64,000 nucleotides of DNA from a virus (IMGVR_UViG_3300022899_000001:13731-77730); one strand, 5' to 3'; shown: positions 20,619 through 39,400, counted from the stretch's first letter. A program made the numbers and translations. Notes: generated by a model not told the origin, from the sequence alone.

Positions 20619-21323
20619 TTACTCAATGCAGAGCGGCATTTGATCTTTCTCCACGGTCTTTGGGATATAGCCTTCCATTCGTGCTCTCGACATCTCGAAT
20701 GCGATGGGATCATTCTCAAACGCCACATAATCCACATTCAACGTTTTGGCGGCGTTCAACGTGGCGCCACCGCCGCAAAACGGTTCAAGTAAAACAGCAG
20801 GCCGAATCGGTTTATATTTCCGAGAATGCTGGTCATCTCCAAGGCAATAAGAAATGACGTAACGAGCTGAGCCTTCGTCCTGTCCCCAGTTGTGAAATCG
20901 TTTGTCCGGTCCCTGACCATTGTAGGTGGACACCATGTTGGGAACGATTATCGCGGCCGGTCCTTTTGACCACATCAGGATTGGCTTGCTGGCATTGAGA
21001 ATTTTACGCGGCCAAATGATGGGCTTGTCTCTCGTATTCAGTGTTTCGATTTTGAAGTAATAGGAAAGTCCGCTGGCACTCGCCATTGAGAAGATACGGT
21101 CCAAGTAAAGGCTGCTGGCGATGAAACAACAGAATCCTCCGGGTTTGAGAACGCGCATGGCTTCACAACAAAGCCATCCGTAAAGTGGAATGAATTCTTT
21201 CGGGTAAGGAGGGTCAGTGAATATCATGTCCACCGATTCATCGGGGATGTCTTTTGACAGTTCACGCGCATCGCCAAGCGTGATGGAGTTCAAATCGTAT
21301 GGTCCGAGTTGTTTCATAATCAA
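20619..21323 (-). CDS. Amino (N6-A/N4-C) DNA methyltransferase, beta class
   Basis: SVDMIFTDPPY precedes LLEPFCGGGAT (motif IV before motif I). Confidence 0.85.
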   Translation of the reverse strand: MIMKQLGPYDLNSITLGDARELSKDIPDESVDMIFTDPPYPKEFIPLYGWLCCEAMRVLKPGGFCCFIASSLYLDRIFSMASASGLSYYFKIETLNTRDKPIIWPRKILNASKPILMWSKGPAAIIVPNMVSTYNGQGPDKRFHNWGQDEGSARYVISYCLGDDQHSRKYKPIRPAVLLEPFCGGGATLNAAKTLNVDYVAFENDPIAFEMSRARMEGYIPKTVEKDQMPLCIE

Positions 21324-21351
21324 AGTTTCCCCCGCCGCGTCACGCTACACA

Positions 21352-21411
21352 GCGCAACATCCCGTGCAGCGTATGCCTACCCCGATACGGCTATCGGTTG
21401 TTTTGTTCTGC
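21352..21411 (+). other. Degenerate attC-like site
   Basis: GCGCAAC-ATCCC-GTGCAGCGTATGCC...GGCTATCGGTTG-TTTT-GTTCTGC. The left arm matches the array consensus; the right arm is eroded. Confidence 0.45.
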
Positions 21412-21430
21412 CGGGTCACGGCGGGGAAAG

Positions 21431-21673
21431 TCATTCAGCCTCCAACACTTTCTGCGCTAAGGCATCCATTGAAATGCGACCCTCTGAATCTTTGATGTAT
21501 CGAAGCGCAGTTTGATGCCTTGTCTCTCCCGGCCACTTGCGGGCAACCGCCATGATAAGTTCATTGTAATTACGTTCAAGTTCACGGTGTTGTTGCTCCA
21601 CAAGTTCGATCAATTCAACCGCGTCGGCTGTGCGGTAGAAGCCTTCACTCCTGAGTTCTTTTGGTGTTTTCAT
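21431..21673 (-). CDS. Small hypothetical protein
   Basis: 80 aa, starts MKTPKELRSEGF. Confidence 0.6.
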   Translation of the reverse strand: MKTPKELRSEGFYRTADAVELIELVEQQHRELERNYNELIMAVARKWPGETRHQTALRYIKDSEGRISMDALAQKVLEAE

Positions 21674-21854
21674 TGATTCGCTTCACACAGATTCCACCAA
21701 TCCTTCGCGCTTCCAAGTAATAAGGCAGGGCGTCAAAGCTGATGTGTGTGATTCCTCGGTGCGCGTTTGCGATATACCAGAACGGATCGCCAACTGGGTC
21801 TGGATTTACCAATACGCCAAAACCTTCTGCCCTGAGTTCGGAGGCGGTTTTCAT
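21645..21854 (-). CDS. Small hypothetical protein
   Basis: ATG at 21854 in an ATGA overlap; starts MKTASELRAEGF. Confidence 0.55.
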   Translation of the reverse strand: MKTASELRAEGFGVLVNPDPVGDPFWYIANAHRGITHISFDALPYYLEARRIGGICVKRINENTKRTQE

Positions 21855-22078
21855 TCGATTGATCTGAACCACACCCGGAACTCGTCCAGTGTTTTGAATC
21901 CGTCTATGGCAACCATGCCTTCGGTCGTGTTGATGCCAAGGCGCTCAAGCCAGAGTTGGACTCGACCAAGTTCCATAGGCTTCGGTCTGCGAATCCAGAT
22001 GCCCGTGTCCTGATGGTACGCACCGCGATAGTCGCGGATGGCGTTGGACAGCTTTCTGAGTTTATCGGTTCGGCTCAT
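21851..22078 (-). CDS. Small hypothetical protein
   Basis: 75 aa, ATGA-coupled on both sides. Confidence 0.6.
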   Translation of the reverse strand: MSRTDKLRKLSNAIRDYRGAYHQDTGIWIRRPKPMELGRVQLWLERLGINTTEGMVAIDGFKTLDEFRVWFRSIE

Positions 22079-23289
22079 ATAATCTCGATTCTTTTTCCGG
22101 GTATTAAAAACTTCCCGCCCGCATCCAGATAGTTCTGATTCTTGCTAATGATTTCGTCCTTGAAATTGCCACTGAAGATAATCGCATAATCCGGCTTCTG
22201 CTTCATCAGTTCTGATTCCGGCACAATCGGGATGGAAGTCCCCGGACTGAACTTCCCCTGCTTGTTCGGCGTGCAATCGCAGATGAATTTGATCTCGTTG
22301 TGAGTGAATCCGCAGGCCGAAATCCAGACGGTTGATTTCGCAGATGCGCCAAAACCAGCAATCGTCTTACCCGTTCGTTTGGCCGATCTCAGGCCAAGCA
22401 AGTCCTCTACTTTGAATCGCAGATGATTGATTGCGGCGTGAGCATCGTTGCTGAATGTCTGCCATGATTGTTCGGTGATGTTCTCAGACGGAATTGAGTC
22501 AGGGTATTTCTCGCAGTCATTTCTCCTGAGAAGGAAAACGATTGAGCCTCCCATGATGTCAAAATTCCGAACCGCGTGAAGGTGGAACACCGTGCCTTTC
22601 AGGAGATGCTCGATGGATGAGATTGAGACGTAGGACAAATGTTCGTGGTATGCCGTCTCCCATTGGACTTTACTGAGCATGTCAACCAAGGACGGCACCT
22701 CAATGGCGATAAGTGTGTCCTTTCTTGCGATCACCCCAAGGTTATTGATGAACTCGCTCCAATCATTCACATGCGCGAATACATGGCGGGCAATAATGAC
22801 ATTAGGTATTGGCACAACGCCACCGACGATGTTCGCGCTGTAAGAATCGAACAGGCCAACAATCGTGGTGATGCCATCCTTCGTCGCGAGTTCTGCAAGG
22901 TTGCCAGCCGGGTCAACGCCGCACACTCGTTCTGCGCCATTCGCCAGAGCGAACTTCAAAAATGCGCCCGTGTTGCTGCCAATCTCAATCACCGATTCCA
23001 CTGGCGATTTCTGTTTGATGAACGCCCACAGCGACTCGAAATGAGCGAGCATGGTTGCGCTCTCAGAAGTTCGGTAACTGTATCCAGAATATAAAATCTC
23101 CGGTGAGACAACCTCGCGAAGTTGCGCCAATTGACAACGCTCGCACCAAAGCAGCGTCAATGGAACGTAGCCATCTTGTTCTTCGCCTTCGGCCTTGAAT
23201 GAGTTGGCGAGAGGCATGGGCGGCAGAGAGAATACTTCGCGCAATGATGGATTTCCGCAAGCGCGACAGGTTGTTCGGATCGAGAAAAT
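22075..23289 (-). CDS. NDP-hexose C-methyltransferase-like protein (Zn-binding N-terminus, class I SAM domain, C-terminal domain)
   Basis: TTCRACG...MPLANSF...LTLLWCERCQLAQL, VIEIGSNTG, ARHVFAHV, YHEHLSY, IAGFGASAKS, DCTPNKQGKFSPGTSIPI. The CRAC motif lies upstream of the track start (23244); in-frame ATT at 23289. Confidence 0.85.
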   Translation of the reverse strand: MFSIRTTCRACGNPSLREVFSLPPMPLANSFKAEGEEQDGYVPLTLLWCERCQLAQLREVVSPEILYSGYSYRTSESATMLAHFESLWAFIKQKSPVESVIEIGSNTGAFLKFALANGAERVCGVDPAGNLAELATKDGITTIVGLFDSYSANIVGGVVPIPNVIIARHVFAHVNDWSEFINNLGVIARKDTLIAIEVPSLVDMLSKVQWETAYHEHLSYVSISSIEHLLKGTVFHLHAVRNFDIMGGSIVFLLRRNDCEKYPDSIPSENITEQSWQTFSNDAHAAINHLRFKVEDLLGLRSAKRTGKTIAGFGASAKSTVWISACGFTHNEIKFICDCTPNKQGKFSPGTSIPIVPESELMKQKPDYAIIFSGNFKDEIISKNQNYLDAGGKFLIPGKRIEII

Positions 23290-23290
23290 A

Positions 23291-23764
23291 TCAGCCTCCT
23301 GTGTTGATTGTAAGTCTCGCCATCTCGCGCAATATCACTTCGGCGACCGCAGGTACTATGGCGTTTCCGAGTCCTTTAAGGCGGTGTGTCCGATTGGGTA
23401 TCCCATCAGCCACTCGACCCAATTCGGGTTCAGGCTGCCACTGTGCCCACCCATTACAGAAGGTTGGGTGGATGCGTTCAACACAGGCAAGAGTCTGTGG
23501 CCAGAGCCAGCGGTGATCTTCCGAGCCTCTTTGGTGCCCGGCGCAAGAAGCGGGCTGGCAAGGAGGTCCACCTGTGATGAGATCAGCGTTGAGTTGTGGC
23601 ACGTTTCGGATGTCTCCGTAGTTGGGCACGTTGGGCCAGTGTCGCTTGAGGATTTTGCACGCATAAGGTTCAATTTCAGAAAATCCGATGGTTGTAAATC
23701 CTGCTGCTTGTGCGGCGATTGTGAAGCCGCCAATGCCGCTAAAAAGATCAAGGTGAGTCAGCAT
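23291..23764 (-). pseudogene. C5-cytosine DNA methyltransferase (alpha frame) with large in-frame internal deletion
   Basis: Motif I LDLFSGIGG, motif IV GGPPCQP and motif X LGNAIVP are present; the ENV (VI) and VIII motifs are absent; only 157 aa. Confidence 0.7.
23356..23751 (-). CDS. Alternative-frame (beta-type) polypeptide nested in the C5 methyltransferase gene
   Basis: Open for 131 codons and carries LNPNWVEWLMGYPIGHT, a motif IX-like segment missing from the alpha frame. Confidence 0.55.
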   Translation of the reverse strand: MIFLAALAASQSPHKQQDLQPSDFLKLNLMRAKSSSDTGPTCPTTETSETCHNSTLISSQVDLLASPLLAPGTKEARKITAGSGHRLLPVLNASTQPSVMGGHSGSLNPNWVEWLMGYPIGHTALKDSETP

Positions 23765-23767
23765 ATC

Positions 23768-24394
23768 CTACCTCGGCATCGTCAACCCCCGCTCCCCATC
23801 CGCCGCCCTGGTGAGTTTGGAAACAATTTCAGACCACGGTCTGCCTTCGCAACGGACACGCTTAATAAGGTCCGCGTTTACGCTGCCTGGAAAGCACCAC
23901 CAATCCTCAGTCTCGCCATAGTCAGGAATCACAACGTCGGCGCAGGCCAGATCGTAACCGTATTCCTTCATCGCCAATCGCATTCTGTCACGCGGCTCAT
24001 CACCAATCCTGTAACGATCATGCTCAATAGTCGCAACACTGAATCGTAATGTTCCAAACGGTATGTTACTGAACGTGTCGAGTGTCGCATCGTCACAGTC
24101 CAAACTCAAAAAGTCAATTATTCGAGGCAGACCAGCCTCATCAATTACCGCGAGCCAGTCCGTTTTGGTTGTGTCGCCCTGAATAAACTTGCTGGTGCGA
24201 TTCTGAATCCGATCTGCGTCACACAGAATGTCGAACAATAAACCGCTCCAACCCATTTGCTCAAGAGCGTATGTGTTGTTCATCGAGGTCAGGTTATACG
24301 AACCAACATCCAGAAATGTGCCATCAGTTCTCTGCCCGCACATTTCAAATGCGAATACATCCTGTCCCGCCTGTGATGTGGATTGAAGAATCAT
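23768..24394 (-). CDS. FkbM-like class I SAM methyltransferase
   Basis: SQAGQDVF...GTFLDVGS...NNTYALEQMGWSGLLFD...IDFLSLDCD. Confidence 0.75.
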   Translation of the reverse strand: MILQSTSQAGQDVFAFEMCGQRTDGTFLDVGSYNLTSMNNTYALEQMGWSGLLFDILCDADRIQNRTSKFIQGDTTKTDWLAVIDEAGLPRIIDFLSLDCDDATLDTFSNIPFGTLRFSVATIEHDRYRIGDEPRDRMRLAMKEYGYDLACADVVIPDYGETEDWWCFPGSVNADLIKRVRCEGRPWSEIVSKLTRAADGERGLTMPR

Positions 24395-25179
24395 GCACGA
24401 CTTCTTCGAGACGACGCATCATACATCGCCTGAGCCTTCTTCAAATCACGCGGCCCGTTTTCAATCTCGTGCATCTGGTGAAAGTATAAGTATTCTTCAA
24501 TTATGTGAAACTTCACTCCCGCCCGCTGCATGGCTCCCTGAAGATCAAGCTGCCAATAGCCCCATTCCAAAAGTTCTTCATCGTAAAAATCCGCTGCCGC
24601 CATTGCTTGTTTCGTCGTGATAAAACTGGCCGCATCATACAAGGCGCTCGTGTGCCAGCCCGCGCCTTCCGAGTTCTTCAGGAGGTTTTTTGGGTTTTCC
24701 CTCCAATTCAAACCTTCCAAATCAGAAGCGTGGTCAACTGCTTCGTGTGGTTTTCCTTTTTGCGACCAATAGGGCATCTGCATCAACCAGCTTGCAACAA
24801 ACCACATAGGGTCAGCGCCATCGTTAGACTGCTTGGAAAACTCACCGACCAGCCTCTCGCAGTAATCCACATCGTAAATACAATCTGCTTTTGCCAAAAT
24901 AAACACGTCATGCTTGGCCATTCTGATAGCTGTATTCTGGCACCAAGAAGCTGTTGTCTTGGCCGGATCACCGTGTTTATTAAACGAGAACCGAAGCTTG
25001 TCCACGTCGAAATGCTTGGCTATGACCCTTTTGATTTCACTCTCTGAATAATCAGTGTTGTTCTCGAAGAACAGCCAGCAATCAGGGGAGATGGTTTGCT
25101 TGGACAATGAGTAGAGGCTTCGCTCAAGATGGTCAAGCGTCAGACTTCTAAAGAATGTGAAAATCAAACTCCAAGTCAT
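24391..25179 (-). CDS. GT-A fold (GT2-like) glycosyltransferase
   Basis: N-terminal SLIFTFF...LERSLYSLSKQT; FILAKADCIYD (DxD-like); WGYWQLDLQ...HQMH. Confidence 0.65.
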   Translation of the reverse strand: MTWSLIFTFFRSLTLDHLERSLYSLSKQTISPDCWLFFENNTDYSESEIKRVIAKHFDVDKLRFSFNKHGDPAKTTASWCQNTAIRMAKHDVFILAKADCIYDVDYCERLVGEFSKQSNDGADPMWFVASWLMQMPYWSQKGKPHEAVDHASDLEGLNWRENPKNLLKNSEGAGWHTSALYDAASFITTKQAMAAADFYDEELLEWGYWQLDLQGAMQRAGVKFHIIEEYLYFHQMHEIENGPRDLKKAQAMYDASSRRSRA

Positions 25180-25925
25180 ATTTCTGCCCCTTTTCTCTTG
25201 TTGAATTGCTGTTTGAAATACGGATCAGTCAACGTGTCGGCGAAACCTGAAAGCACGCGCTTGGTTTTCATGTCTGCTTTTGAAAAATCTTCTGTCGGCC
25301 TCCAAAACGCGAGACAATTTGACTGGTCGCCGCGCCAGAAGCAATTTGGTGCCCTGCGCCATTCGCGCCATTGATACTCACCACTCCATAGCACCAGCTT
25401 GACTGGAAGCTTTTCCCGCGCAACCAAAACCCACAAACTGTTAGGGCCATGCTCGAATGCGTATCGGTCAGACTTGCTACTGACGCCGAATGGATAACGT
25501 CGCAAAATGTGTGGCGGGCAAAAGAATCCACTCGTGTTAAGATGTGGGCGAATCTGATAGCTGGCGCAGGTCCCGTAAAGACCTGGAGCTTCGGCGAACA
25601 CCTTGGCCATGCGCGAGAGCCAGCCGGGTTTGTTGAAATAAGCTGACGCACCAAAACACAAGATCATGTCGGCGTCACATTGCTTGGAATAATCCAAATA
25701 ACCACCGATGTCCCAGCCGTCGTTTGTGCGAGTGAAGAAACTACAATCTGCAATCTGGCTGAATTGTGCCTTCTGCCGGCTGTCCGGCTCCCGGCCATTA
25801 CAGATGATAACAGTTGAATGGTGTTCACCGGGCGGATGCGAAAGGTAGGAACTGATAAAACGCGAGTGCGCGGACTGAAACTGCGCAAGATGAGGAACCA
25901 TGATGTAGGCGAGCATGATCTTCAT
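25176..25925 (-). CDS. Putative glycosyltransferase-like protein
   Basis: FFTRTNDGWDIGGY...ILCFGASAYF...HLNTSGFF...YAFEHG; lies within the GT cluster. Confidence 0.5.
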   Translation of the reverse strand: MKIMLAYIMVPHLAQFQSAHSRFISSYLSHPPGEHHSTVIICNGREPDSRQKAQFSQIADCSFFTRTNDGWDIGGYLDYSKQCDADMILCFGASAYFNKPGWLSRMAKVFAEAPGLYGTCASYQIRPHLNTSGFFCPPHILRRYPFGVSSKSDRYAFEHGPNSLWVLVAREKLPVKLVLWSGEYQWREWRRAPNCFWRGDQSNCLAFWRPTEDFSKADMKTKRVLSGFADTLTDPYFKQQFNKRKGAEI

Positions 25926-26596
25926 GCAGGCACTCGCCTTCCAAAGTACATCGGAAATCTCCTAGCCACTTCATGGAAATTGCGCTGCTCAATCGCATTG
26001 ATGCCGGGCATCTTCGAGCTTGTGGCCTTGCCGATGTGGGTCACGCGGCAGTCTGGAGTAACGTGAAGGGTGTAGCCTTTTTCTATCAGACGAAGACCAA
26101 GGTCTATCTCCTCCCAGTAACAAAACTTCAAGTAATCACTGAACAATCCAACCTCTTTCAACAATTCCGTTCGCCCCATCATGCAATGTCCCCATAGATA
26201 TTCGATTGCGGATTTATCAGGGTTGAGGCTTTTTCGGAAATGACCACCCACCGGCGAGGACAACGCGCACATCTGAAACTCCTTGAACGGACGCTCCAAA
26301 GCCTCAAGCCAGCCAGAATCAACAGTCGTGTCGTCATTGAGGTAAATCACAAAATGCGAAGTTATCTTGGTCAATGCAACTCGTGATGGATTGATGAATC
26401 CCTCGTTCTTTTGATTTATTACCACCGTGACGTTGGGATGATCGCGAGCCAGGCCAAGGAAATAATTCCCAACTACCGGATTACCGTTGCTGGTCAGGCA
26501 TAATTCAAAGTCGGAACTGTGTGCAAATACGGACTCCAGGCATCTCTTACAGTGATCCAGAGCCGTGTATGTCGTTATACAGATGCCGTAACGCAT
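25922..26596 (-). CDS. GT2 family glycosyltransferase
   Basis: ICITTY...CLESV...NEGF...IYLNDDTTV...EEIDLGLRL..KGY. Confidence 0.85.
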   Translation of the reverse strand: MRYGICITTYTALDHCKRCLESVFAHSSDFELCLTSNGNPVVGNYFLGLARDHPNVTVVINQKNEGFINPSRVALTKITSHFVIYLNDDTTVDSGWLEALERPFKEFQMCALSSPVGGHFRKSLNPDKSAIEYLWGHCMMGRTELLKEVGLFSDYLKFCYWEEIDLGLRLIEKGYTLHVTPDCRVTHIGKATSSKMPGINAIEQRNFHEVARRFPMYFGRRVPA

Positions 26597-26963: not shown

Positions 26964-26993
26964 TGCTAACCCGTCGCATAATCACTGTTAGCA
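26964..26993 (+). other. attI-like site 1
   Basis: AATCACT-GTTAGCA opens array 1 without an attC left arm; 9/10 identical to the site beside the integrase remnant. Confidence 0.55.
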
Positions 26994-27223
26994 GGCTCTC
27001 CGTTTTTGGCGTCGTAGTATTTGTCCCACGCTTTCGAGGTCTGGTCGCACAGGTCATCGTATGCCAGTTGAGCATCTTGAGCTTGCTGTCGTGCTTCGTT
27101 TCGTAGTGATTGGAGTTTTTTGCAGTTCGCAAGTAGCCTGCTAACAAGCTCACTGGAGCGAACCGGCTTGGGCTGCTTCAGTGAGGTTATCAGGGCGTAG
27201 TTGGACGGTTTGATTCGGCTCAT
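26966..27223 (-). CDS. Cassette ORF, small coiled hypothetical protein
   Basis: 85 aa; ATG inside attC 27139-27271; ends ANSDYATG across the attI-like site. Confidence 0.6.
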   Translation of the reverse strand: MSRIKPSNYALITSLKQPKPVRSSELVSRLLANCKKLQSLRNEARQQAQDAQLAYDDLCDQTSKAWDKYYDAKNGEPANSDYATG

Positions 27224-27271
27224 AGGTCTTGTTGCATTTCGCCAGCGGGTCGCTCAGTTCGGTCGTTAGGC
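27139..27271 (+). other. attC-type site (133 bp)
   Basis: TGCTAAC-AAGCTC-ACTGGAGCGAACCGGC ... GCGGGTCGCTCAGT-TCGGTC-GTTAGGC. Confidence 0.85.
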
Positions 27272-27272
27272 G

Positions 27273-27881
27273 TCATAGGAACGCGCCTTGCAAGTTCGGA
27301 CGCTTTCGTTCCGCAAGGCATATTGTGTCGTTGTGGGCCGCGCCGTGGCAGACGAGCATCACTTCGAGGATGTCGCAGCCGTGCTTCTGCCCCATTCCGG
27401 CGCTGTTCCATCCGAAGCTCAGGACGATGGCATCGTCGGTCAGCACTTCGGCCATTGCGTTTTTTACGCGAGAGTAGAGCGCGGCGTTTTGCGTTTCCTT
27501 CATGCCGCACTTGATTCCGGCTTCCTGGTAGCACTCGCTGATTTGGCGCGGCGAGTATGGCGGGTCGAGGATTGCGAGGTCGCACCGGATTCCTTTGCCC
27601 GCGAGCATCCGCAGAAAGTCCTCGGCATCCATGTGATATTCCGCCTCTGTCTTTGGGTTCAGGTCGTTGGTGTAGGTTGCCCATCGTTTGTTGCGTGCGA
27701 ACGGGTCGCACGAGATTTTCGCGGCTTTGAGATAGCGTTGCACCATGTCACCTATTGGCCGGACGCTGAAGGTGTCAGCAGACGGCATTGCCCACACGCG
27801 GGAGAATGACGCCGAACCATACGGTGCAGCGAATGCCGCCATCGCATCTCCGGCGAGTTCGTGAGTCTCAGTGGGCGGCAT
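27273..27881 (-). CDS. Cassette ORF: small adenine-type DNA methyltransferase-like protein
   Basis: ISCDPFARN...LAILDPPYSPRQISECY; true start may be a few codons downstream. Confidence 0.7.
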   Translation of the reverse strand: MPPTETHELAGDAMAAFAAPYGSASFSRVWAMPSADTFSVRPIGDMVQRYLKAAKISCDPFARNKRWATYTNDLNPKTEAEYHMDAEDFLRMLAGKGIRCDLAILDPPYSPRQISECYQEAGIKCGMKETQNAALYSRVKNAMAEVLTDDAIVLSFGWNSAGMGQKHGCDILEVMLVCHGAAHNDTICLAERKRPNLQGAFL

Positions 27882-27904
27882 CGCTGACCTTATCGTCGTT
27901 GGGC
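27811..27904 (+). other. attC-type site (94 bp)
   Basis: GCCGAAC-CATAC-GGTGCAGCGAATGCCGCC ... GGCGGCATCGCTGACC-TTATCGTC-GTTGGGC; the arms differ only by the extra G and A. Confidence 0.9.
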
Positions 27905-28131
27905 CGACGCCAGTGGGTAGCGATCTTATCTACCTTTGCCCACTTTGGCCGATACATTGGCCGGCCATCGTAGAATCTCAGAACGGTTTGGACACTGCCC
28001 CACCACACTTCACCGCTCACGAGTTTAGTGCCAATTTGTATTCGGTCGCCCGGCCCAACCACCGGATGCTGCGAACGTGCGGTTCGCTTTCGGCATCCGG
28101 CTTTGGGAGAAATTGGACGTTTATTTTTCAT
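27868..28131 (-). CDS. Cassette ORF, small basic hypothetical protein
   Basis: 87 aa; starts in attC 28053-28160 and ends PNDDKVSDAAH in attC 27811-27904. Confidence 0.55.
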   Translation of the reverse strand: MKNKRPISPKAGCRKRTARSQHPVVGPGDRIQIGTKLVSGEVWWGSVQTVLRFYDGRPMYRPKWAKVDKIATHWRRPNDDKVSDAAH

Positions 28132-28160
28132 CGGCAGGTCGCTGATCCGGGACGTTCCCC
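28053..28160 (+). other. attC-type site (108 bp)
   Basis: GCCCAAC-CACC-GGATGCTGCGAAC ... GGTCGCTGATCC-GGGAC-GTTCCCC. Confidence 0.85.
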
Positions 28161-28885
28161 ACCTTGAGCACGCGCAGGATTTGCCGTGCGAGATATTCCG
28201 CGAAGGCCGGTGGTATGGCTTGCGCGATTTCTTTTCGAGTCGCCCACGGCATCTGCATGATTTCGCGGGCTTCTTCGAGTCCCTTTGGCTTGCGTCCGAG
28301 TCCGCCAGTTTTCTTTTTACGAGGCGCGTGTTGGAAGCTGCCAGTTCCGCTCACGTCTATCGGGTCAGGTTGTGCGGCGTGGTTGCATTCCGGCGCAGTC
28401 AGCAGGACGTTGCTCTCGAAGATGCGATGCCGGCGCACCCGAAGCCCGAAGGACGAGCCACAGAGCATCACCGGATTTTGCAGCGGCGCACCGACCACGT
28501 TTTCGATGATGTAGAGTCCTCCCCACGCCTTGAGCTTTTCGCGTGTGCGTTCGATGTAGCACTCGTATTCTTTGCCGGTCACATGCTTTAGAGTTGTGTG
28601 CGCCTGGCACGGCGGCGAGGCCCACACGAAATCGAAGCCGGACAGGTCAGCATCCAGCGCATTTCCGATGTGACGCTTGAAGGGATAGTTCAGGCCGCTC
28701 TTGATGTCCCATCCTTCCACCTCGAATCCGGCGTTGTGGATTCCCATGCCCGCACCGCCGGCGCAGCAGAATAAGTCAGCACATCGCGGGGCAGGTGGGG
28801 AACAAGACGCTGCACGCAAAGATGCCCCGCTTCGCAGTTCGAGCGGTTGCATCTTCGGCGGCGCGTCTGTCAGTTCGATAGTCAT
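28121..28885 (-). CDS. Cassette ORF: C5-cytosine DNA methyltransferase (short phage type)
   Basis: DLFCCAGG (I), WASPPCQ (IV), IIENV (VI), RRHRIFE (VIII), IAQAIPPAF (X). Confidence 0.85.
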   Translation of the reverse strand: MTIELTDAPPKMQPLELRSGASLRAASCSPPAPRCADLFCCAGGAGMGIHNAGFEVEGWDIKSGLNYPFKRHIGNALDADLSGFDFVWASPPCQAHTTLKHVTGKEYECYIERTREKLKAWGGLYIIENVVGAPLQNPVMLCGSSFGLRVRRHRIFESNVLLTAPECNHAAQPDPIDVSGTGSFQHAPRKKKTGGLGRKPKGLEEAREIMQMPWATRKEIAQAIPPAFAEYLARQILRVLKVGNVPDQRPADEK

Positions 28886-28931
28886 TTGGCGTTATTGAGG
28901 CGGGGCATCTTGCGTGAGCTTTTCGTTGGGC
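28797..28931 (+). other. attC-type site (135 bp)
   Basis: GGGGAAC-AAGAC-GCTGCACGCAAAGATGCCCCGC ... GCGGGGCATCTTGCGTGAGC-TTTTC-GTTGGGC. Confidence 0.9.
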
Positions 28932-29596
28932 CACTTAGCGCACGTCGCTGCCAGTTCGAGCAGATAGTGCGCGAACGCGGGAGGCGTGGCGTTTGCCTCA
29001 CGCTTTGAGAGTGTCGGTTTATTGGCGGCCTTGCCGCGCTGGTCGTGGAAGCCGACTTGATGCGTCCCGATTGGTCGCGCCCATCGAGGGTGTAGCGGAG
29101 ATTGAGTGCCTGAGCAGTAGAGCCATGTTCGTTTGTTCGCTCGATGCCCGTAGGCCGATTGCCAGACTTCGCACACCCATCCTTGCTTCCATCGCGTCCA
29201 TCCGATTCCAGGATACGGCAGCCCGTGCGCCGTCCATGCGTAGGTTTCCGCAGGATGTTCGAGCACGCCGCCGCAGCGGTTCACAGTGTCGAGCGCAAAT
29301 TGGAAGCAGCCGCCATCATTGCCGGGTCGGTTGTGTTCTCCGCCCCACCGCAGATGATTTATCACCGCCATCTTGCCCCACAGTTGGCAGGGAGGATGAG
29401 CGACCACGGGATTGTTGCCCGCGTAGGTCAGCGCGTTTCGTTCGGCGTCGTAGCAGTCACAGCCGAGCGACTTGTAGAGAGAGTCTTTCATCACGAAAAG
29501 CACAGTGACGTGGCCCAACCAATCAGTGCAGCGAACAGCCGCCCCGCTCTCCGGTTCGGCGTTCACTGGAATTAGAATGTCGGCGGTGTCGTTCAC
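28892..29596 (-). CDS. Cassette ORF: divergent C5 DNA methyltransferase-like phage protein
   Basis: VVAHPPCQLW (PC motif), GGVLEHP, HRANKRTWLY, ANATPPAFA. Confidence 0.6.
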   Translation of the reverse strand: MNDTADILIPVNAEPESGAAVRCTDWLGHVTVLFVMKDSLYKSLGCDCYDAERNALTYAGNNPVVAHPPCQLWGKMAVINHLRWGGEHNRPGNDGGCFQFALDTVNRCGGVLEHPAETYAWTAHGLPYPGIGWTRWKQGWVCEVWQSAYGHRANKRTWLYCSGTQSPLHPRWARPIGTHQVGFHDQRGKAANKPTLSKREANATPPAFAHYLLELAATCAKWPNEKLTQDAPPQ

Positions 29597-29635
29597 GGTT
29601 TCTCTCGGAGGCTGTCGCTGACTTCTGCGTTCTAC
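29513..29635 (+). other. attC-type site (123 bp)
   Basis: GCCCAAC-CAATC-AGTGCAGCGAACAGCC ... GGCTGTCGCTGACT-TCTGC-GTTCTAC. Confidence 0.9.
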
Positions 29636-29922
29636 GGCACCGGCATGACGCCTTTGCTTTTAAGAAAACGGCGGTTGATCTCTTTCGGCCAGTCAGCGGG
29701 CCAGTCGGTTGGGTCGCCTTTGGAGTCCATCAGCACCCACCCTTCGGCATCCCGATACGCAGAGGCCGGTGACGTAGAACCAGCCGGATGCAGCGAACCG
29801 GGCTTCGCCGGTTCGCCATCACGCTTTTTTGAACGGCGCTGCTTTGCCTTCTGTTCACGCAGCCAGTTTCTTGTTGCCGAGTCCTCCGGCCACACTCTTG
29901 GTTTCGCCATGCCCATTGCCAT
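29632..29922 (-). CDS. Cassette ORF, small hypothetical protein
   Basis: 96 aa; starts inside attC 29774-29973; its TAG is part of the next site's R' box. Confidence 0.55.
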   Translation of the reverse strand: MAMGMAKPRVWPEDSATRNWLREQKAKQRRSKKRDGEPAKPGSLHPAGSTSPASAYRDAEGWVLMDSKGDPTDWPADWPKEINRRFLKSKGVMPVP

Positions 29923-29973
29923 ATTCAGATTTCTTTCTTGTTTTCGCCCGGTCGCTGATCCGGGACGTTCTCT
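29774..29973 (+). other. attC-type site (200 bp)
   Basis: GTAGAAC-CAGCC-GGATGCAGCGAACCGGGC ... GCCCGGTCGCTGATCC-GGGAC-GTTCTCT; 21 bp (29950-29970) identical to 28137-28157. Confidence 0.9.
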
Positions 29974-30245
29974 GTCGGCTGTCGCTTACTCTCGTGCCCC
30001 ATCTGCCGGCGGAAGCGGCCTTTGTAGTGCATCGGCACGCCTCCAAAGTGGTTGATAATATAGACGGTGTTTTCGTCCACTGATTTCCATTTGCACGGAT
30101 GCGAGTAGTGGTAGAATTGGTCACCTTTTCGGATTCGCTCCTTGAGTCTCAGCACACGAAATTGGCTAACCACGCGCTGAAGACGACTGCGAGAGCGTCG
30201 GGTAGCACTGGCCGTCTTTCCGCGTTGGAGCTTTTTTGTTTTCAT
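29925..30245 (-). CDS. Cassette-like ORF, small basic hypothetical protein
   Basis: 106 aa; ends ENVPDQRPGENKKEI inside an attC. Confidence 0.55.
   Translation of the reverse strand: MKTKKLQRGKTASATRRSRSRLQRVVSQFRVLRLKERIRKGDQFYHYSHPCKWKSVDENTVYIINHFGGVPMHYKGRFRRQMGHESKRQPTENVPDQRPGENKKEI
30164..30190 (+). other. attC left half-site
   Basis: GGCTAAC-CACGC-GCTGAAGACGACTG with no convincing right arm. Confidence 0.45.
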
Positions 30246-30637
30246 CGCCGCTGCGCCTTGTAGTGTTCCAATATCTTGTCATACTCCGCATCGCCCACTG
30301 GAATGACCTGTCCTTTGAACGGTTCTGGCATATCCTCGCCGCTGAACCATGCGAACCGAGTCCCTTCCACAGTAGTAATGGCGCACCAACCCAAGTCCAA
30401 GTTCTTCTGGCACGTCGGGCAATACGGCTTGTGCTTTGGCTCGACTATCTTCGCTTCGACTCGCTTGGCAAACGGAGCGCCATATCTCTTTCCGCACAAC
30501 GCGCAGGGTATCGCAGCGGATGGCAGCTTGCCGTTGCGCTTGGCCCGATTCTCCATCATGCGGTCGCCATACTGCTTCTTTAACGAAGGCAGCAGCGCGG
30601 AGAGACGCTTCAGTCGGTCGAGGAAGTTGTCGCTCAT
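30242..30637 (-). CDS. Hypothetical protein with two CxxC motifs
   Basis: PCALCG...YCPTCQ; 131 aa. Confidence 0.6.
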   Translation of the reverse strand: MSDNFLDRLKRLSALLPSLKKQYGDRMMENRAKRNGKLPSAAIPCALCGKRYGAPFAKRVEAKIVEPKHKPYCPTCQKNLDLGWCAITTVEGTRFAWFSGEDMPEPFKGQVIPVGDAEYDKILEHYKAQRR

Positions 30638-30642
30638 AACAA

Positions 30643-31182
30643 TCAGCCATCTAGCGGGCTTTTGATGCGCCGCTCGACCGGAGCGGCGACATGAATGTGC
30701 TTTGCATGTCCCGGAAGTGACCCGAATTCACCATGAAGAAGGCGTGATGCGAAAGCATACGCGACGGCAGCGTCCCTCTCGGTATCGAAATGGCCTATTG
30801 GAATCATTTTGTAGTTATACCTAATTCGCGCTCTGAATTTATTCTTGTCCTTTGAGACTCCGCGCACCCCGTATTTGCCCCATGCCAAGTGAAGATTTCG
30901 GCTGTTTTCTCCTTGGGTGCATAGCCTTAAATTCTCCCGGCGATTGTCCAGCCCGTCTCCATTGATGTGGTCAACTTGCTTGTGTGATGATCCATTTATG
31001 CCAAGCATGAATCGGTGCATGGTGACTTCGATCCGCTTTCCGTTTACCGTCGGTCGCCGTGCAGCATAAAGCAGCTTTCCGCCATGACATTGTTTCAAAC
31101 TCCATTTGAACTTTGACAACTTATCGAAGTCCGAATCATCAACGATGGCGTGTTTTCCAGCACTAAGAGGGATTGTTTTCAT
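30643..31182 (-). CDS. HNH homing endonuclease with AP2 DNA-binding domain
   Basis: MHRFML...VDHINGDGLDNRRENLR...N; GVRGVS...FRARIRYN...IGHFDTERDAAVAY. Confidence 0.9.
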   Translation of the reverse strand: MKTIPLSAGKHAIVDDSDFDKLSKFKWSLKQCHGGKLLYAARRPTVNGKRIEVTMHRFMLGINGSSHKQVDHINGDGLDNRRENLRLCTQGENSRNLHLAWGKYGVRGVSKDKNKFRARIRYNYKMIPIGHFDTERDAAVAYAFASRLLHGEFGSLPGHAKHIHVAAPVERRIKSPLDG

Positions 31183-31353
31183 TTAGTTGCTAGTGTGCCG
31201 CAGCGTGTGACATGCTGTCAAACTGTAATCGAGCAAACGCTTGACGTAACAATCCACCGTGCGCGGCGAGTAATGCTTGGTGACCAGCCAGCGGCGGAAC
31301 ACCTCACGTGGCTTGAGTGAATCAGCTTTACGCGGTTCAATTACGGCTGTCAT
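31183..31353 (-). pseudogene. intI: Integron-integrase (tyrosine recombinase) remnant, 56 aa
   Basis: My translation: MTAVIEPRKADSLKPREVFRRWLVTKHYSPRTVDCYVKRLLDYSLTACHTLRHTSN*. It joins an IntI-type N-terminal HYSxRTxxxY helix directly to the box II CHTLRH motif. Confidence 0.75.
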
Positions 31354-31643
31354 GGCTTTGAGTCGTTGGAATAACTGTTCTGACGCTTGGAATCAGCAGC
31401 TTCAATCTCTTTTGAGAAGGCGACCATTGCGTTGACCACCTCAGTCTTGTGGGCAAGTGGCACTTCAGGTTGGTAGCACAGAAGGTCTGTTATTTCCTTC
31501 ATCCACGCTTCAAGCCTCTGGACGGCAGGTCGCGTCAGAACCATGCGGTGCAGCGAATGAGCTTCCGCCTGTTCCGCTTCTCGCAGGCTTCGCTCTGTAG
31601 CGCAGTCTAGGCACAGACAATCTTCTTCGTGTTTATCGCTCAT
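31350..31643 (-). CDS. Cassette ORF (first of array 2), hypothetical protein
   Basis: ATG at 31643 lies in the L' arm of the attC; ends QNSYSNDSKP; its TGA overlaps the intI ATG. Confidence 0.6.
   Translation of the reverse strand: MSDKHEEDCLCLDCATERSLREAEQAEAHSLHRMVLTRPAVQRLEAWMKEITDLLCYQPEVPLAHKTEVVNAMVAFSKEIEAADSKRQNSYSNDSKP
31365..31383 (+). other. attI-like site 2
   Basis: AATAACT-GTTCTGA, about 24 bp upstream of the intI ATG and on the opposite strand, as in canonical integrons. Confidence 0.65.
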
Positions 31644-31664
31644 CGCTGACCTTTTTCGTTCTAC
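31535..31664 (+). other. attC-type site (130 bp)
   Basis: TCAGAAC-CATGC-GGTGCAGCGAATGAGC ... GCTCATCGCTGACC-TTTTTC-GTTCTAC. Confidence 0.9.
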
Positions 31665-31915
31665 AGCACCCGCTCGCTGTGTTTTATTTCGACGCATCTG
31701 ATTTCGGGGGGCACTAGCAAGTCCCTAAAGAACCATCTGGCATATTCCAGCGCCTGTGATTTGTTGTCCCGCTGGCCGGGGATCCGTTCCCATTTGGCCT
31801 TCTTTGTTTTCCATTCGACCGCGTATGCTGTAGAACCACGGCATGGAGCAGAACTGCCCTTGCGCTTTGCAGTTTTCAAGCGTGCTGGTTTGCGGGAGTT
31901 GGTTTTCGTTTTCAT
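31661..31915 (-). CDS. Cassette ORF, small basic hypothetical protein
   Basis: 84 aa, bounded by attC sites. Confidence 0.55.
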   Translation of the reverse strand: MKTKTNSRKPARLKTAKRKGSSAPCRGSTAYAVEWKTKKAKWERIPGQRDNKSQALEYARWFFRDLLVPPEIRCVEIKHSERVL

Positions 31916-31960
31916 ATTTTCGGGCTGTCGGCGGGCAGTCGCTCATCGCCGACGTTCTGC
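31830..31960 (+). other. attC-type site (131 bp)
   Basis: GTAGAAC-CACGGCATGGAGCAGAACTGCCC ... GGGCAGTCGCTCATCGCCGAC-GTTCTGC. Confidence 0.8.
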
Positions 31961-32274
31961 CGCCTGCGTTTCAGTCCTTCGAGCCGCTTCTGGAGAGCCG
32001 TTAGGTCGCGCTCCGATTCAGCGATTGCCTTGGCGAAGGCTTCGTCCCGCGTCTCGAAAAGATGATGTCCTTCCGCGCCGGAGAATCCGACTTCTGGACA
32101 CCACCACATTGTTGGGTTGCTTGGAGCGCATGAGTAGCCAGTGACTTCGCGCACGTCACCATCTGCCACGGCCCACCATTGGCGTTTCTCGCGTTCGACT
32201 GCGGCAGAACCACCGGGTCGAGCTAACCCGGCGGGCCGATCTGGTTGTTGGATGTTGGTTTGCATGGATTTCAC
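31912..32274 (-). CDS. Cassette ORF, hypothetical protein
   Basis: 120 aa; ends QNVGDERLPADSPKI inside an attC. Confidence 0.6.
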   Translation of the reverse strand: MKSMQTNIQQPDRPAGLARPGGSAAVEREKRQWWAVADGDVREVTGYSCAPSNPTMWWCPEVGFSGAEGHHLFETRDEAFAKAIAESERDLTALQKRLEGLKRRRQNVGDERLPADSPKI

Positions 32275-32316
32275 GTTTGGGTTTTCGCGCCGGGTAGCTC
32301 ACCCGGAGCGTTCTGC
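32204..32316 (+). other. attC-type site (113 bp)
   Basis: GCAGAAC-CACC-GGGTCGAGCTAACCCGGCG ... CGCCGGGTAGCTCACCC-GGAGC-GTTCTGC. Confidence 0.9.
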
Positions 32317-32579
32317 CAATGTTCCTCGCATCGAACCTTGGCCTCTTTGACCGTGGCGTAATCACCGATAGTCCAGGATCGTCTATAGGCCGTTCCAGAG
32401 GAGACGTGCGCTTGGACTTTGGCTCTGTATTGCGTCACGAAATAGCGAAACCCAGCCGACGCAGCCCACGTCCACATATTTACTCCATTCGCCTGACTGT
32501 AATGCCAAATGGCAGAACCAACCGGATGGAGCAGACCCGGTTGGGCGTATTGAGTTTTTTCTTGAGGTTCAGGTTTCAT
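32271..32579 (-). CDS. Cassette ORF, hypothetical protein
   Basis: 102 aa; ends QNAPGELPGAKTQT inside an attC. Confidence 0.6.
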   Translation of the reverse strand: MKPEPQEKTQYAQPGLLHPVGSAIWHYSQANGVNMWTWAASAGFRYFVTQYRAKVQAHVSSGTAYRRSWTIGDYATVKEAKVRCEEHWQNAPGELPGAKTQT

Positions 32580-32619
32580 AAAGTCTCAGTTCCGGGGCTG
32601 CTCATCCGGGACGTTAGCC
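32512..32619 (+). other. attC-type site (108 bp)
   Basis: GCAGAAC-CAACC-GGATGGAGCAGACCCGG ... CCGGGGCTGCTCATCC-GGGAC-GTTAGCC. Confidence 0.9.
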
Positions 32620-32778
32620 AGCATTGAACGATGCGCACACCACACATTGTTTCGCGCCTTCCGTCGCCTCACCAAGATACTCCGCTTTTACCTGTTCGAC
32701 CGATGAGCACCACGCCGAGTATTTATCTCGCCACCCTTGGTGTGGTCCTTCGTTATTCGCTGGCCGCATTCTGCACAT
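32614..32778 (-). CDS. Possible 54-aa cassette ORF
   Basis: MCRMRPANNEG...QCVVCASFNAG*; the stop TAA lies in the R' box. Confidence 0.35.
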   Translation of the reverse strand: MCRMRPANNEGPHQGWRDKYSAWCSSVEQVKAEYLGEATEGAKQCVVCASFNAG

Positions 32779-32797
32779 CTCATAGTTAGTTGTTTTT

Positions 32798-32828
32798 CAT
32801 CGGTGCTGCTTTAACTCAGTCGTTCTGC
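32798..32828 (+). other. attC right half-site
   Basis: CATCGGTGCTGCTTTAACT-CAGTC-GTTCTGC; a 49-aa ORF (32816-32965, minus) ends QND* across it. Confidence 0.4.
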
Positions 32829-33088
32829 GTCTTCGCCTCGTCCAGTTGCGGAGCGCGGCATTGTGGGCCGCACGACAGGTCTTCGATGACCTGTTCCGTG
32901 GCTTCCTCTGGCAGTTCGTCCAGAAAGATTCTCACGCCTTTGTAGCGCACGAGGCGCACGCTCATCGCTCAGCTTGGTCGTAAGATTCAAAACCAATGCT
33001 CCGCCCGCTACAGTCACTCTGGTGAGGAATGATGGTCTTGCGACCAACGGAGCACTGGAAACTTGATCGTGACTGTAGCATGGAGGAG

Positions 33089-36489: not shown

Positions 36490-39400
36490 ATGCCTTTCTC
36501 GGATACCGATGAACTGGTTTACGACACACCGAAGTCCTCTTTCTCGGAATCCGACGCACCTGTAGAACCACCTCCGCAAGCAATTCCTGCTGACAATCAA
36601 GGCGGCTACCTTACCGAAGTCGCACGCGGCCTGACGCAGTTTGTTCCTGCGGCAATCAAAACGATTTCCACTGTTGGTGAACGTCAAAAGTTTACTCCAT
36701 TCGGTCCAACTGCCCGCGAAGTTGCTGACTACGCCTTGCGGAAGGTTGGTGTTGAACCCGCGCCCGGAGAACTTCCTGAGACTCGTCCAATCTACAAGAT
36801 TGGCCAGCGTGTCGAGGATGTTTTGAACCAAGCCTACCCCGCTGTGCCTGAACCAGAGCGCAATCTTGGACACGACGTTGCAGCCGGACTTGGCCAGATG
36901 GCTTCCATGTTGGCAGGCGGTGTTGGAGCGCGGGCCGCTGGCGCAACCGCTAAAGGCGCGGCAGGTATCGCAACATTGCTTGGCGGTGTTCAAGAGTTCG
37001 ATGATGCTTTTGGCCGCTCACGACAGCGCGGCGATGATCCTGACACCGCGTTTGCCAAGTCACTTGGCTATTCCACCGTCGCGGCTTTGATCGAAAACCA
37101 TCTTGGTGCCGGACGCATTCTCAAGAAGTATTTCCCTGATCCTGCCGAAGCCGCCCGCAAGCTGAGTGCGTGGGGAGTCAGTAAAGCTGTGGCTGGCTCA
37201 CTCGCTGTCGGTTTTGGCGAGGAAGGCTCACAACGATTCGCGCAGAACTGGATTGTCGAAGGCAAGCCGTCATTGGAAGGTGTCGTTCAGGAAGGCGCAC
37301 CGGGCGGCATAGTTCAGGCGATAGCGGAACTGCCAGCGACTTTGTTGAGAACAAAAGGCGGTCGAGTGCGCCGTCCAACACAAGCACAACCTACGGAGGA
37401 AACAGATGCCACAAGAACTGGAATCCCAATTGAAGCGCCGGGCACGCAAGCTCCACCTGTCGAAGAAGCGGACAGGGGCATACGTGTACGGGACACTGCG
37501 CAAAACCGGATGGGAGCCCCAGCCATCCTCGCACCGCCGCAAGCAGAAGCGCCTGTCGTCGCGACGACGCCGGTAGCGCCGCTGGCTCTGCCTTCCGTCG
37601 GGGAATCAATTGAACATCCTGTCGTTGGCCAGAAGTTTATAGTTCCACGCCAACTGCGGCTGGCAGATGCTCCGGTTGATACCGAAGTGACCGTGGAGAG
37701 CGTGAAGCGTGGCCCTGACACAAGAGGGGGTAGTCAGACTATCGAAGTTAGATTTTCAGACGGAAATACCAGTGGGAGAAACGCCGGCCAACAATCCGAC
37801 GGAACATTTGTTCCTGTTGATGACATCGTTAATCAGATTCTTTCCGAGCGGAAAGCCAGACCATCTCCTGCGCCGGTCGCCCCTGCGGTTGTTCCGCCAG
37901 TCGTCCTACCCAAGATCGCCCCCGTCGTTTTCAAATCACTCGACCCGATGAATCCGTCCATCGGCTGGTTTGAATTGACCGAGCCGTTCACAGCGCCAGA
38001 AACAGGACGCACGACGGCAGCAGGCGGACGGCTCAACTCGAATCAAATCGAACAATACGGCATGTCGCTGGAAGGGCCTGCTAAGGCAGCGTTCGAGGAA
38101 GCGAAGAAACGAACTTCAGTTAGCAATGCACCCAAGGAACCGAGTGTGGCGGCGGGAGACCAACTAACACCCGTTAGTGAGGGAACAACTCCCGCCGCTG
38201 CTCCTGTAAATGTTCCAACCCCAATCGCAAATGTTCCAACCCCTGCGCCCGTTGCAGCGAAGCCTGCCGAGACTCTCCCGCAAGGGAAAGCTTGGTCTGT
38301 GCCTTGGGCTGATGGTCGGGCGCGTGCATGGTTTAAGACGAAAGAAGCAGCAGACGAATTCTATCGCCAGAAACTTTCAGAGAACGATGTTGATGGTCCT
38401 CCAGAAATTGGTGAACCAACCAAAGGAGTTAAATATGCCGACGAAAAGTATCAAATTCCGAAGGCTGCCAAGGGCTCAAGTGAATCGAATATTAAAGCAG
38501 ACGATTTGGCTGGAGTATTGGGAGAGGGTGCAGGAGGCGGCGCGGCCAGAACTGAAGGCCCTATTGCGATCTCACCAACTACGCCCACGGTGTGGAAGGT
38601 AAGCTATACAGATTTGGAAACCCGTGCTGCCAAGCGCCCATTCTTCAAGCATGTCGTCTATTCAGAAGGTGCGACTCGTCAGGAAGCCATAGACAGAGTT
38701 AAATCTTATCACGGAAATCTTTCAAAGTGGGGAGAGTTTAGAGCCTCAAAAGCTGAAGGTAAAAAGGCTGATTCGTTCTTCCGTGCTCCAGTTGAAGAAA
38801 CCCCCGGCCCAGCGAGCGATGTTTCACCGAAACAGAGCGCCCAAGCTGAGGCGGGACAGTCAATCGTTCAAACTCCAAGTGTTGCGCCGGTTGAGCAGAC
38901 AGTCAAGCTCGTGGCTGATGTTGGGGATGAAGTTACATTCACGCCTTCTGCAAAGAAGGGATTGGCTGTTTCTGGAATCGTTCAGGAAATTGTGAACGGT
39001 GGGCGTGGCTACAACATTCTTTCGCCGCTTCCGAATGATCCAAACCGCGTTGTTCGCGTTTGGCTTGAAGATGGAAGGGTTGAGAAGAAAGCTGCGCCTG
39101 ATACTGCGTCCTTGTTGACGGTTGATGTTCCATTCACCGATGATGCCCGCCGCCGAATAAAAGCTGTTGACCTTCAGCAAGCGCAGTTGCGTGGCGAATA
39201 CCAAAAGATTCAGGACGAGATAAAGTCACTCGAAAAGACCATCAAGCCTCAACGTGGTAATGCTTACTCACGGAGTAAGATCAAGGCGAGCGCAAAACGA
39301 TTAGATGTAGAGCGTTTCCATGCGCTCCAGAAGCAGGCTCGAACGATTGACGAGCAGCTTCATGCTTTGGACGAATCGGCACGAGTGGACAGAAGGCTGA

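Follow-up and report, generated by a model that had tools for sequence, protein, structure and literature searches.

The 77,730-base virus genome IMGVR_UViG_3300022899_000001 (IMG/VR), rated complete and possessing a terminase gene, contains a probable phage-borne integron array, described here from a 64,000-nucleotide stretch of that genome (bases 13731-77730; hereafter the window, whose own coordinates are used throughout). Between 26.96 and 32.83 kb every open reading frame (ORF) lies on the minus strand, with the ORFs packed end to end, and the plus strand carries ten clear repeats (94-200 nt), two short attI-like cores and one lone box, for a count of 12-13 integron-type attC sites that the ORFs traverse. 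Within the window, the repeats are confined to this region and share a single orientation. A region with at least two attC sites and no functional integron integrase gene (intI) nearby corresponds to a cluster of attC sites lacking integron integrases (CALIN), and this is the composition found here. The ORFs form a left array of nine tightly packed members (26966-30637; coordinates are given for eight) and a right array of six (31350-32965), listed here with the C-terminal tails of those that read through the core AAC of a site:

26966-27223, minus strand: ORF, tail ANSDYATG
27273-27881, minus strand: DNA methyltransferase, stop 8 nt short of the box of site A
27868-28131, minus strand: ORF, tail PNDDKVSDAAH
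28121-28885, minus strand: DNA methyltransferase, tail GNVPDQRPADEK
28892-29596, minus strand: 234-aa protein of phrog_12600 (function unknown), tail PNEKLTQDAPPQ
29632-29922, minus strand: ORF, TAG stop immediately before AAC
29925-30245, minus strand: ORF, tail ENVPDQRPGENKKEI
30242-30637, minus strand: ORF
30643-31182, minus strand: HNH endonuclease gene (PF13392), the last ~17 codons being the C-terminus of an integron integrase
31183-31353, minus strand: integron integrase remnant of 56 aa (N-terminal motif and a piece of box II), its ATG overlapping the stop of the upstream gene
31350-31697, minus strand: ORF, tail QNSYSNDSKP
31661-31915, minus strand: ORF, TAG stop immediately before AAC
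31912-32274, minus strand: ORF, tail QNVGDERLPADSPKI
32271-32579, minus strand: ORF, tail QNAPGELPGAKTQT
32614-32778, minus strand: ORF, TAA stop overlapping the AAC of site K
32816-32965, minus strand: ORF, ending in QND and a stop across the lone box

Pfam named none of the small cargo proteins, and a PHROGs search of the cargo named the two methyltransferases and the one family of unknown function. The family profiles that match in the left array cover the part between the boxes only (residues 34-196, 32-238 and, for phrog_12600, 29-220). The sites are as follows, with boxes given as R'' / R' and tails from the core Asn to the stop:

Site Z, 26964-26993, plus strand: short palindrome TGCTAAC ... 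GTTAGCA, an attI-like core; R' (26987-26993) contains the Asn codon of ORF 26966-27223
attC site A, 27139-27271, plus strand: TGCTAAC / GTTAGGC; hairpin fold, 80.9 bits with model R1 (see below)
attC site B, 27811-27904, plus strand: GCCGAAC / GTTGGGC; tail NDDKVSDAAH; body 84% identical to a site of phage contig L017 (L017:2903) with unrelated flanks
attC site C, 28053-28160, plus strand: GCCCAAC / GTTCCCC; tail NVPDQRPADEK
attC site D, 28797-28931, plus strand: GGGGAAC / GTTGGGC; tail NEKLTQDAPPQ; homology to contigs L278 and L279 terminates at its AAC
attC site E, 29513-29635, plus strand: GCCCAAC / GTTCTAC; entered by no ORF, the upstream one having its TAG right before AAC
attC site F, 29774-29973, plus strand: GTAGAAC / GTTCTCT; long centre; tail NVPDQRPGENKKEI; 71% identical to L017:3736
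Site G, 31360-31383, plus strand: attI-like, R' GTTCTGA only, with no R''/L'' partner found; adjoins the integrase remnant; tail NSYSNDSKP
attC site H, 31535-31664, plus strand: TCAGAAC / GTTCTAC; upstream ORF with TAG right before AAC
attC site I, 31830-31960, plus strand: GTAGAAC / GTTCTGC; tail NVGDERLPADSPKI
attC site J, 32204-32316, plus strand: GCAGAAC / GTTCTGC; tail NAPGELPGAKTQT
attC site K, 32512-32619, plus strand: GCAGAAC / GTTAGCC
Lone R' box, 32822-32828, plus strand: GTTCTGC, with no partner arm found

The repeats share the layout xxxxAAC, arm, variable centre, arm, GTTxxxx. The ten clear sites can be aligned with one another, and their single strands fold into hairpins with a paired AAC/GTT, an unpaired spacer of 2-3 nt and a stem of 13-16 bp, with two bulged bases on the 5' arm of the plus strand. 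Both sides have changed in 11 of the 16 pairs of the L stem across these sites, a covariation score that none of 500 shuffles reached. The window sites served to build a model (R1) with which sites of the same family were found elsewhere, and the folds, alignment, covariation and R1 matches together display the features by which attC sites are recognized: the order R''-L''-centre-L'-R', an imperfect hairpin, extrahelical bases and the AAC/GTT core. Further, the R' box of one site is perfectly complementary to the R'' box of the next for Z-A, B-C, C-D, D-E, E-F, G-H, H-I, I-J and J-K; counting only neighbours among A-F and among G-K, eight of nine pairs are perfect and A-B has one mismatch. With all the collected arrays taken together, perfect complementarity is seen in 50 of 70 pairs of neighbours, as opposed to 23 of 110 comparisons of the two boxes within one site. 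Such complementary ends are the footprint of former circular cassettes.

The integrase itself is a remnant. The tyrosine recombinase domain PF00589 has no match in the whole 77.7-kb genome, which thus lacks the intI gene of a complete integron. The related phage contig L017 encodes a full IntI (5670-6665; TIGR02249, 356 bits, cut-off 265), and the 56-aa ORF together with the end of the HNH gene matches its N-terminus, box II and C-terminus; in a tblastn search residues 283-330 of the L017 protein match the HNH gene end, with the last 15 compared residues identical. The window integrase has been gutted, with the catalytic core seemingly replaced by the HNH gene. Intact IntI genes occur in four related contigs (L017, L308, L309 and L310). 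A search for relatives by means of the terminase found none. Two candidates for attI are present in the window: site G, a lone R' box beside the integrase remnant, and site Z, whose coding strand reads AACAGTGATTA, the same 11 nt that directly precede intI in L017 (5643-5653). The second of these attI-like cores, site Z, is at the left array's far end, so that arrays flank the integrase remnant on both sides. Among the integrase-bearing phage contigs, L309 (1142-6161) and L312 (3494-6581) have 11 and 8 attC sites, all of them upstream of and antisense to intI, so that the cassette operon would end with intI.

By the published geometry of attC sites, bulged bases mark the R''-L'' arm on the top strand; as they sit on the 5' arm of the window plus strand, that strand would be the top one. 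Dense arrays of the same site family were recovered with R1 from soil metagenome contigs and from two Verrucomicrobiota metagenome-assembled genomes (MAGs), where the cassettes of the metagenome arrays with a callable strand were predominantly sense to R1 (21, vs 5 antisense). At all four of the MAG loci, intI or a fragment of it lies to the left of the plus-strand sites and is divergent from them, the textbook layout, which also occurs in phage contigs L017, L308, L309, L310 and L312. These three independent lines (bulges, ORF strand in same-family bacterial and metagenome arrays, and integrase position) support the plus strand as the top strand. Standard integron crossover takes place in R', at G|TT as read on the top strand. 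It therefore corresponds to AA|C on the coding strand of the phage, and the phage cargo is antisense relative to the usual direction, running the same way as intI. Promoterless sense cargo read from the cassette promoter (Pc) was not found in the window, as all of its ORFs run opposite to the attC top strand. Scans of genome contigs with a 16-mer from the L' arm returned mostly chance matches, the real sites after screening being limited to the two Verrucomicrobiota MAGs, and the metagenome scan with the same 16-mer required the same screening.

A first-pass annotation, made from the sequence of the window alone, had proposed that eight ORFs read the core AAC as an in-frame Asn, that two others stop at a TAG immediately before it, that N-termini contain the other arm (SLHPAGS, LLHPVGS, SLHRMVL), and that the frame would be biased in other phage arrays. 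All eight quoted tails, both of the TAG-terminated ORFs (29632-29922 and 31661-31915, with the stop in the Asn frame) and the three N-terminal motifs are present in the ORFs, and the bias in frame extends well beyond the window. Each of the eight Asn codons is the reverse complement of the GTT in a plus-strand R' box and is followed by 6-13 codons to the stop; with eight of eight read-through ORFs in one frame, the window alone gives P = 1.5e-4. Seven other phage contigs with the site family contain 23 read-throughs in frame and one in another frame, and four further contigs, found independently via the integrase, contain 14 and 3. For all 12 phage contigs the total is 45 of 49 read-through ORFs in the Asn frame (frame 0; P = 1.5e-17 vs equal frames). 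These counts do not take the longest open upstream frame, a measure that mislabels genes ending just short of the box.

Clustering divides the upstream cargo proteins into ~30 unrelated groups; the frames thus represent largely independent events, and inheritance of one gene end cannot explain the bias. Nor, on reading the sequence, does the site force the frame, since the consensus arm is open in all three. At the GTT box the downstream genes occur in all three phases (21/10/6), with no fixed frame, and top-strand ORFs at R'' in the metagenome arrays likewise follow no rule (13/7/7); the model in the first-pass annotation predicts just such a restriction of the strict frame to the crossover box. 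The metagenome arrays were tried as a negative control and did not prove clean, as bottom-strand ORFs at the R' AAC favour frame 0 (28/5/8), either because some of these contigs may be phage arrays or because the calls may be shadow ORFs. A number of metagenome loci (L143-L257; e.g., L207, L172 and L239) hold dense same-family arrays with cassettes of only 300-500 bp.

The junctions between genes are equally compact. In the window the gaps are −4 (four times), −11, −14, 0, 2, 5 and 6 nt, and the predicted start codons are mostly ATG and lie inside the sites. At 20 of 39 sites an in-frame start of the downstream gene begins one base before the frame-0 stop (ATGA or GTGA), and this overlap is also found at sites E and H, where no ORF currently reads in (GTGA in the case of site E). 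The site body therefore looks as though it were prepared for an incoming frame-0 ORF, whatever the present neighbour. From this anatomy it appears that translation would start inside the sites and be coupled to that of the upstream gene. The bias could instead reflect mere selection against long read-through and fusion to the next gene, with no role for coupling or shuffling: at many sites frames 1 and 2 stop tens to hundreds of codons downstream, vs 1-24 codons in frame 0. This explanation seems improbable as a sufficient account, as stopping before the box would serve the same end, yet just seven of 64 genes do so, and at about half of the sites the frame-0 stop sits on the next start codon, a property of site design and not of gene design only. 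Selection of this kind overlaps with the explanation favoured below and does not replace it.

Comparison of cargo between phages places the breakpoints of homology at the same triplet. The 234-aa protein (28892-29596) has 28 homologs in viral contigs, and those outside arrays start at about residue 28 and stop at about residue 220 with their own codons. The DNA of phage contigs L278 and L279 can be aligned with the window, at 85% identity, between the GTTGGGCC box and the GGCCCAAC box, with the alignment terminating at the AAC of the latter. After the shared segment the three phages have three different tails: NEKLTQDAPPQ and a stop in the window, NGPDQGRRASDSRTL and a stop in L278, and the Asn followed directly by a stop in L279. 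Two L017 sites, located after unrelated genes, are 94% and 86% identical to the site that follows the L278 copy, and those L017 genes end in nearly the tail of L278. Both of these pairs of closely related site bodies, and two further ones (84-94% identical, unrelated flanks), show identity that begins exactly at AAC; the outer four bases of the AAC box differ and the GTT box is shared, including its outer bases, a pattern that fits crossover at R' and not at R''. It had been anticipated that identity would stop at the Asn codon, that the tail would track the downstream cassette and that crossover would use the G/TT strand. The homologs bear out the first two, and the bulges, ORF strands and integrase positions bear out the third; the observation is confirmed and the interpretation given to it in the first-pass annotation is largely supported.

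Repeated stem-loops at phage gene junctions are familiar from another setting. T4-type promoter stem-loop cassettes lie between genes, contain promoters and probably act via homologous recombination; an integrase, an AAC/GTT core or a coding role is not known for them. The window sites resemble them as stem-loops that recur where genes meet in the early region of a phage and that are tied to modular shuffling of genes, and could by analogy be linkers for homologous recombination between phages as opposed to integrase targets. The presence of a repeat at every gene junction and the mosaic gene content of the phages would suit such linkers, which nonetheless have very little to recommend them once set against breakpoints at a conserved AAC triplet and not inside the arms, cassette ends complementary as in circular intermediates, hairpin covariation, and a site family that adjoins integron integrases in both bacteria and phages.

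The explanation preferred here, to which we assign a probability of roughly 70%, is that the locus is a phage-borne integron with a decayed integrase, that its attC sites form the standard hairpin, and that its cargo runs antisense through those sites with the crossover kept as an in-frame Asn. On the coding strand each site would consist, in order, of the outer four bases of the box, AA|C, the L' arm, the stop of the upstream gene, the start of the downstream gene, the L'' arm and the GTT box. Standard crossover would thus fall within a codon of the upstream gene, and that codon would be kept as an in-frame AAC. Each cassette would supply the last 1-24 codons and the stop to any gene placed upstream, usually in an ATGA or GTGA overlap with its own start, and any order of cassettes would yield closed, back-to-back reading frames. 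Recombination of these sites by IntI, either the phage enzyme of the relatives or that of a host, is suggested by the homology breakpoints at AAC and the linkage of the outer box bases, both of which would be signs of recombination at AA|C, and selection for coupled translation would presumably maintain the frame. Any present-day activity in this genome would need a helper, such as a host IntI.

Several observations weigh against this explanation. This complete genome has no working integrase, complete or near-complete relatives (G001 and G007) are without one as well, and the window array may be frozen. When the DNA of 13 phage array regions was compared all against all, the 234-aa cargo, a few site bodies and intI alone proved to be shared, with no identical or near-identical cassette in two contexts, and the comparison thus documents no recent shuffling. 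Ahead of the 234-aa orthologs, the upstream site bodies are only ~60% alike, the family background for any two sites, and so give no sign that a cargo is linked to its own start-bearing site; this divergence could stem from fast drift with compensatory changes or from separate exchange of site bodies. The start codons are uncertain, as the 234-aa gene has an in-frame TTG in the GTT box aligned with the start of its free-standing homologs. Lastly, the integrase-bearing set is looser (3 of 17 read-throughs in other frames, and 5 ORFs that stop before the box), and sites belonging to one family cannot be treated as fully independent samples.

Part of this list would suit a frozen relic, an array built long ago by integron recombination and now immobile, in which the common frame derives from how the cargo was first grafted and not from selection for safe reshuffling. 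The decay or absence of the integrase in these genomes, the lack of a highly identical cassette common to two phages, and different cargo on the same type of site are all compatible with a relic. It is unlikely all the same: related phages differ almost completely in cassette content, yet the sites persist, cassette ends are still perfectly complementary, the frame-0 stop-start overlap is kept at sites without an incoming ORF, and IntI is intact in the four related contigs named above. The phage-borne integron can also be taken further, to a proposal that we regard as evenly poised between right and wrong, in which the attC sites of this lineage are coding junction modules with a universal frame standard (Asn AA|C plus an NTGA overlap). 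Any cassette could then follow any other, an early operon ending in intI would stay coupled, and the phages would thereby permute anti-restriction methyltransferases and small early genes. Such a standard would be a natural analogue of the standardised scars used in cloning.

The array shares with bacterial integrons, both class 1 and sedentary chromosomal, the R and L boxes, bulged bases, complementary cassette ends, crossover triplet and a platform layout in which intI points away from the array's top strand, and also, in the relative L017, an IntI of family TIGR02249. Unlike in bacterial integrons, the cargo is entirely antisense and co-directional with intI, ORFs begin and end inside attC, the crossover triplet is a fixed-frame codon, and the carrier is a lytic-type phage genome with, in this instance, an intI remnant. 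In the Treponema 'reverse integrons', or inverted-integrase group, intI and the cassette genes also run in the same direction, the integrase gene being inverted relative to attI and the cassettes. The shared direction of intI and cargo is the likeness; here the platform is canonical and it is the cargo that is inverted relative to its own attC.

Clusters of attC sites and integrons in phage genomes, including virulent phages, with DNA methyltransferase cargo are already known, and IntI1 recombined five of six phage attC sites tested (Qi et al. 2023, PMC9892861). The phages of that study are cultured and have cassettes that are sense, as in bacteria, or of mixed direction, with no coding attC or frame rule reported, and they do not include the soil lineage described here (PMC9892861). 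In class 1 integrons, translation of the next cassette is aided by termination-restart on short ORFs, namely ORF-11 in attI1 and others in attC (reviewed in PMC8876359). Unlike those short ORFs, which are separate, on the sense strand and at single sites, the upstream gene itself enters the site here, in one frame and at nearly all sites. A literature search turned up no account of cargo running antisense through attC, of a crossover codon held in a fixed frame or of the present phage lineage encoding an IntI itself; what is new, as far as we found, is the frame rule and the coding, antisense attC sites.

Integron recombination sites are usually viewed as non-coding spacers behind promoterless genes. 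In this virus the machinery appears instead to act inside reading frames and on the opposite strand, such that gene order could change without a cost to expression. If this is true, these arrays would be an example of a site-specific recombination site doubling as coding sequence, and phages would possess a dedicated device for shuffling early and anti-defence genes. It would also tie soil phages to the integrons of their likely hosts through a common site family. The likely hosts are Verrucomicrobiota, in which that family occurs together with IntI genes 41% identical to the phage IntI. The two Verrucomicrobiota MAGs (G005 and G006; loci L268-L277) contain 28 and 11 family sites spread over many contigs, along with one complete IntI and several integrase fragments interrupted by stops, which suggests that each genome has more than one integron or decaying ones.

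Other genes of interest lie outside the array. Beside it on the minus strand (within 20619-26596) are a C-methyltransferase (22075-23244; PF08484 and others) and another N6/N4 DNA methylase (20619-21323), and the structural region has a single 2841-aa ORF on the plus strand (36490-45015).

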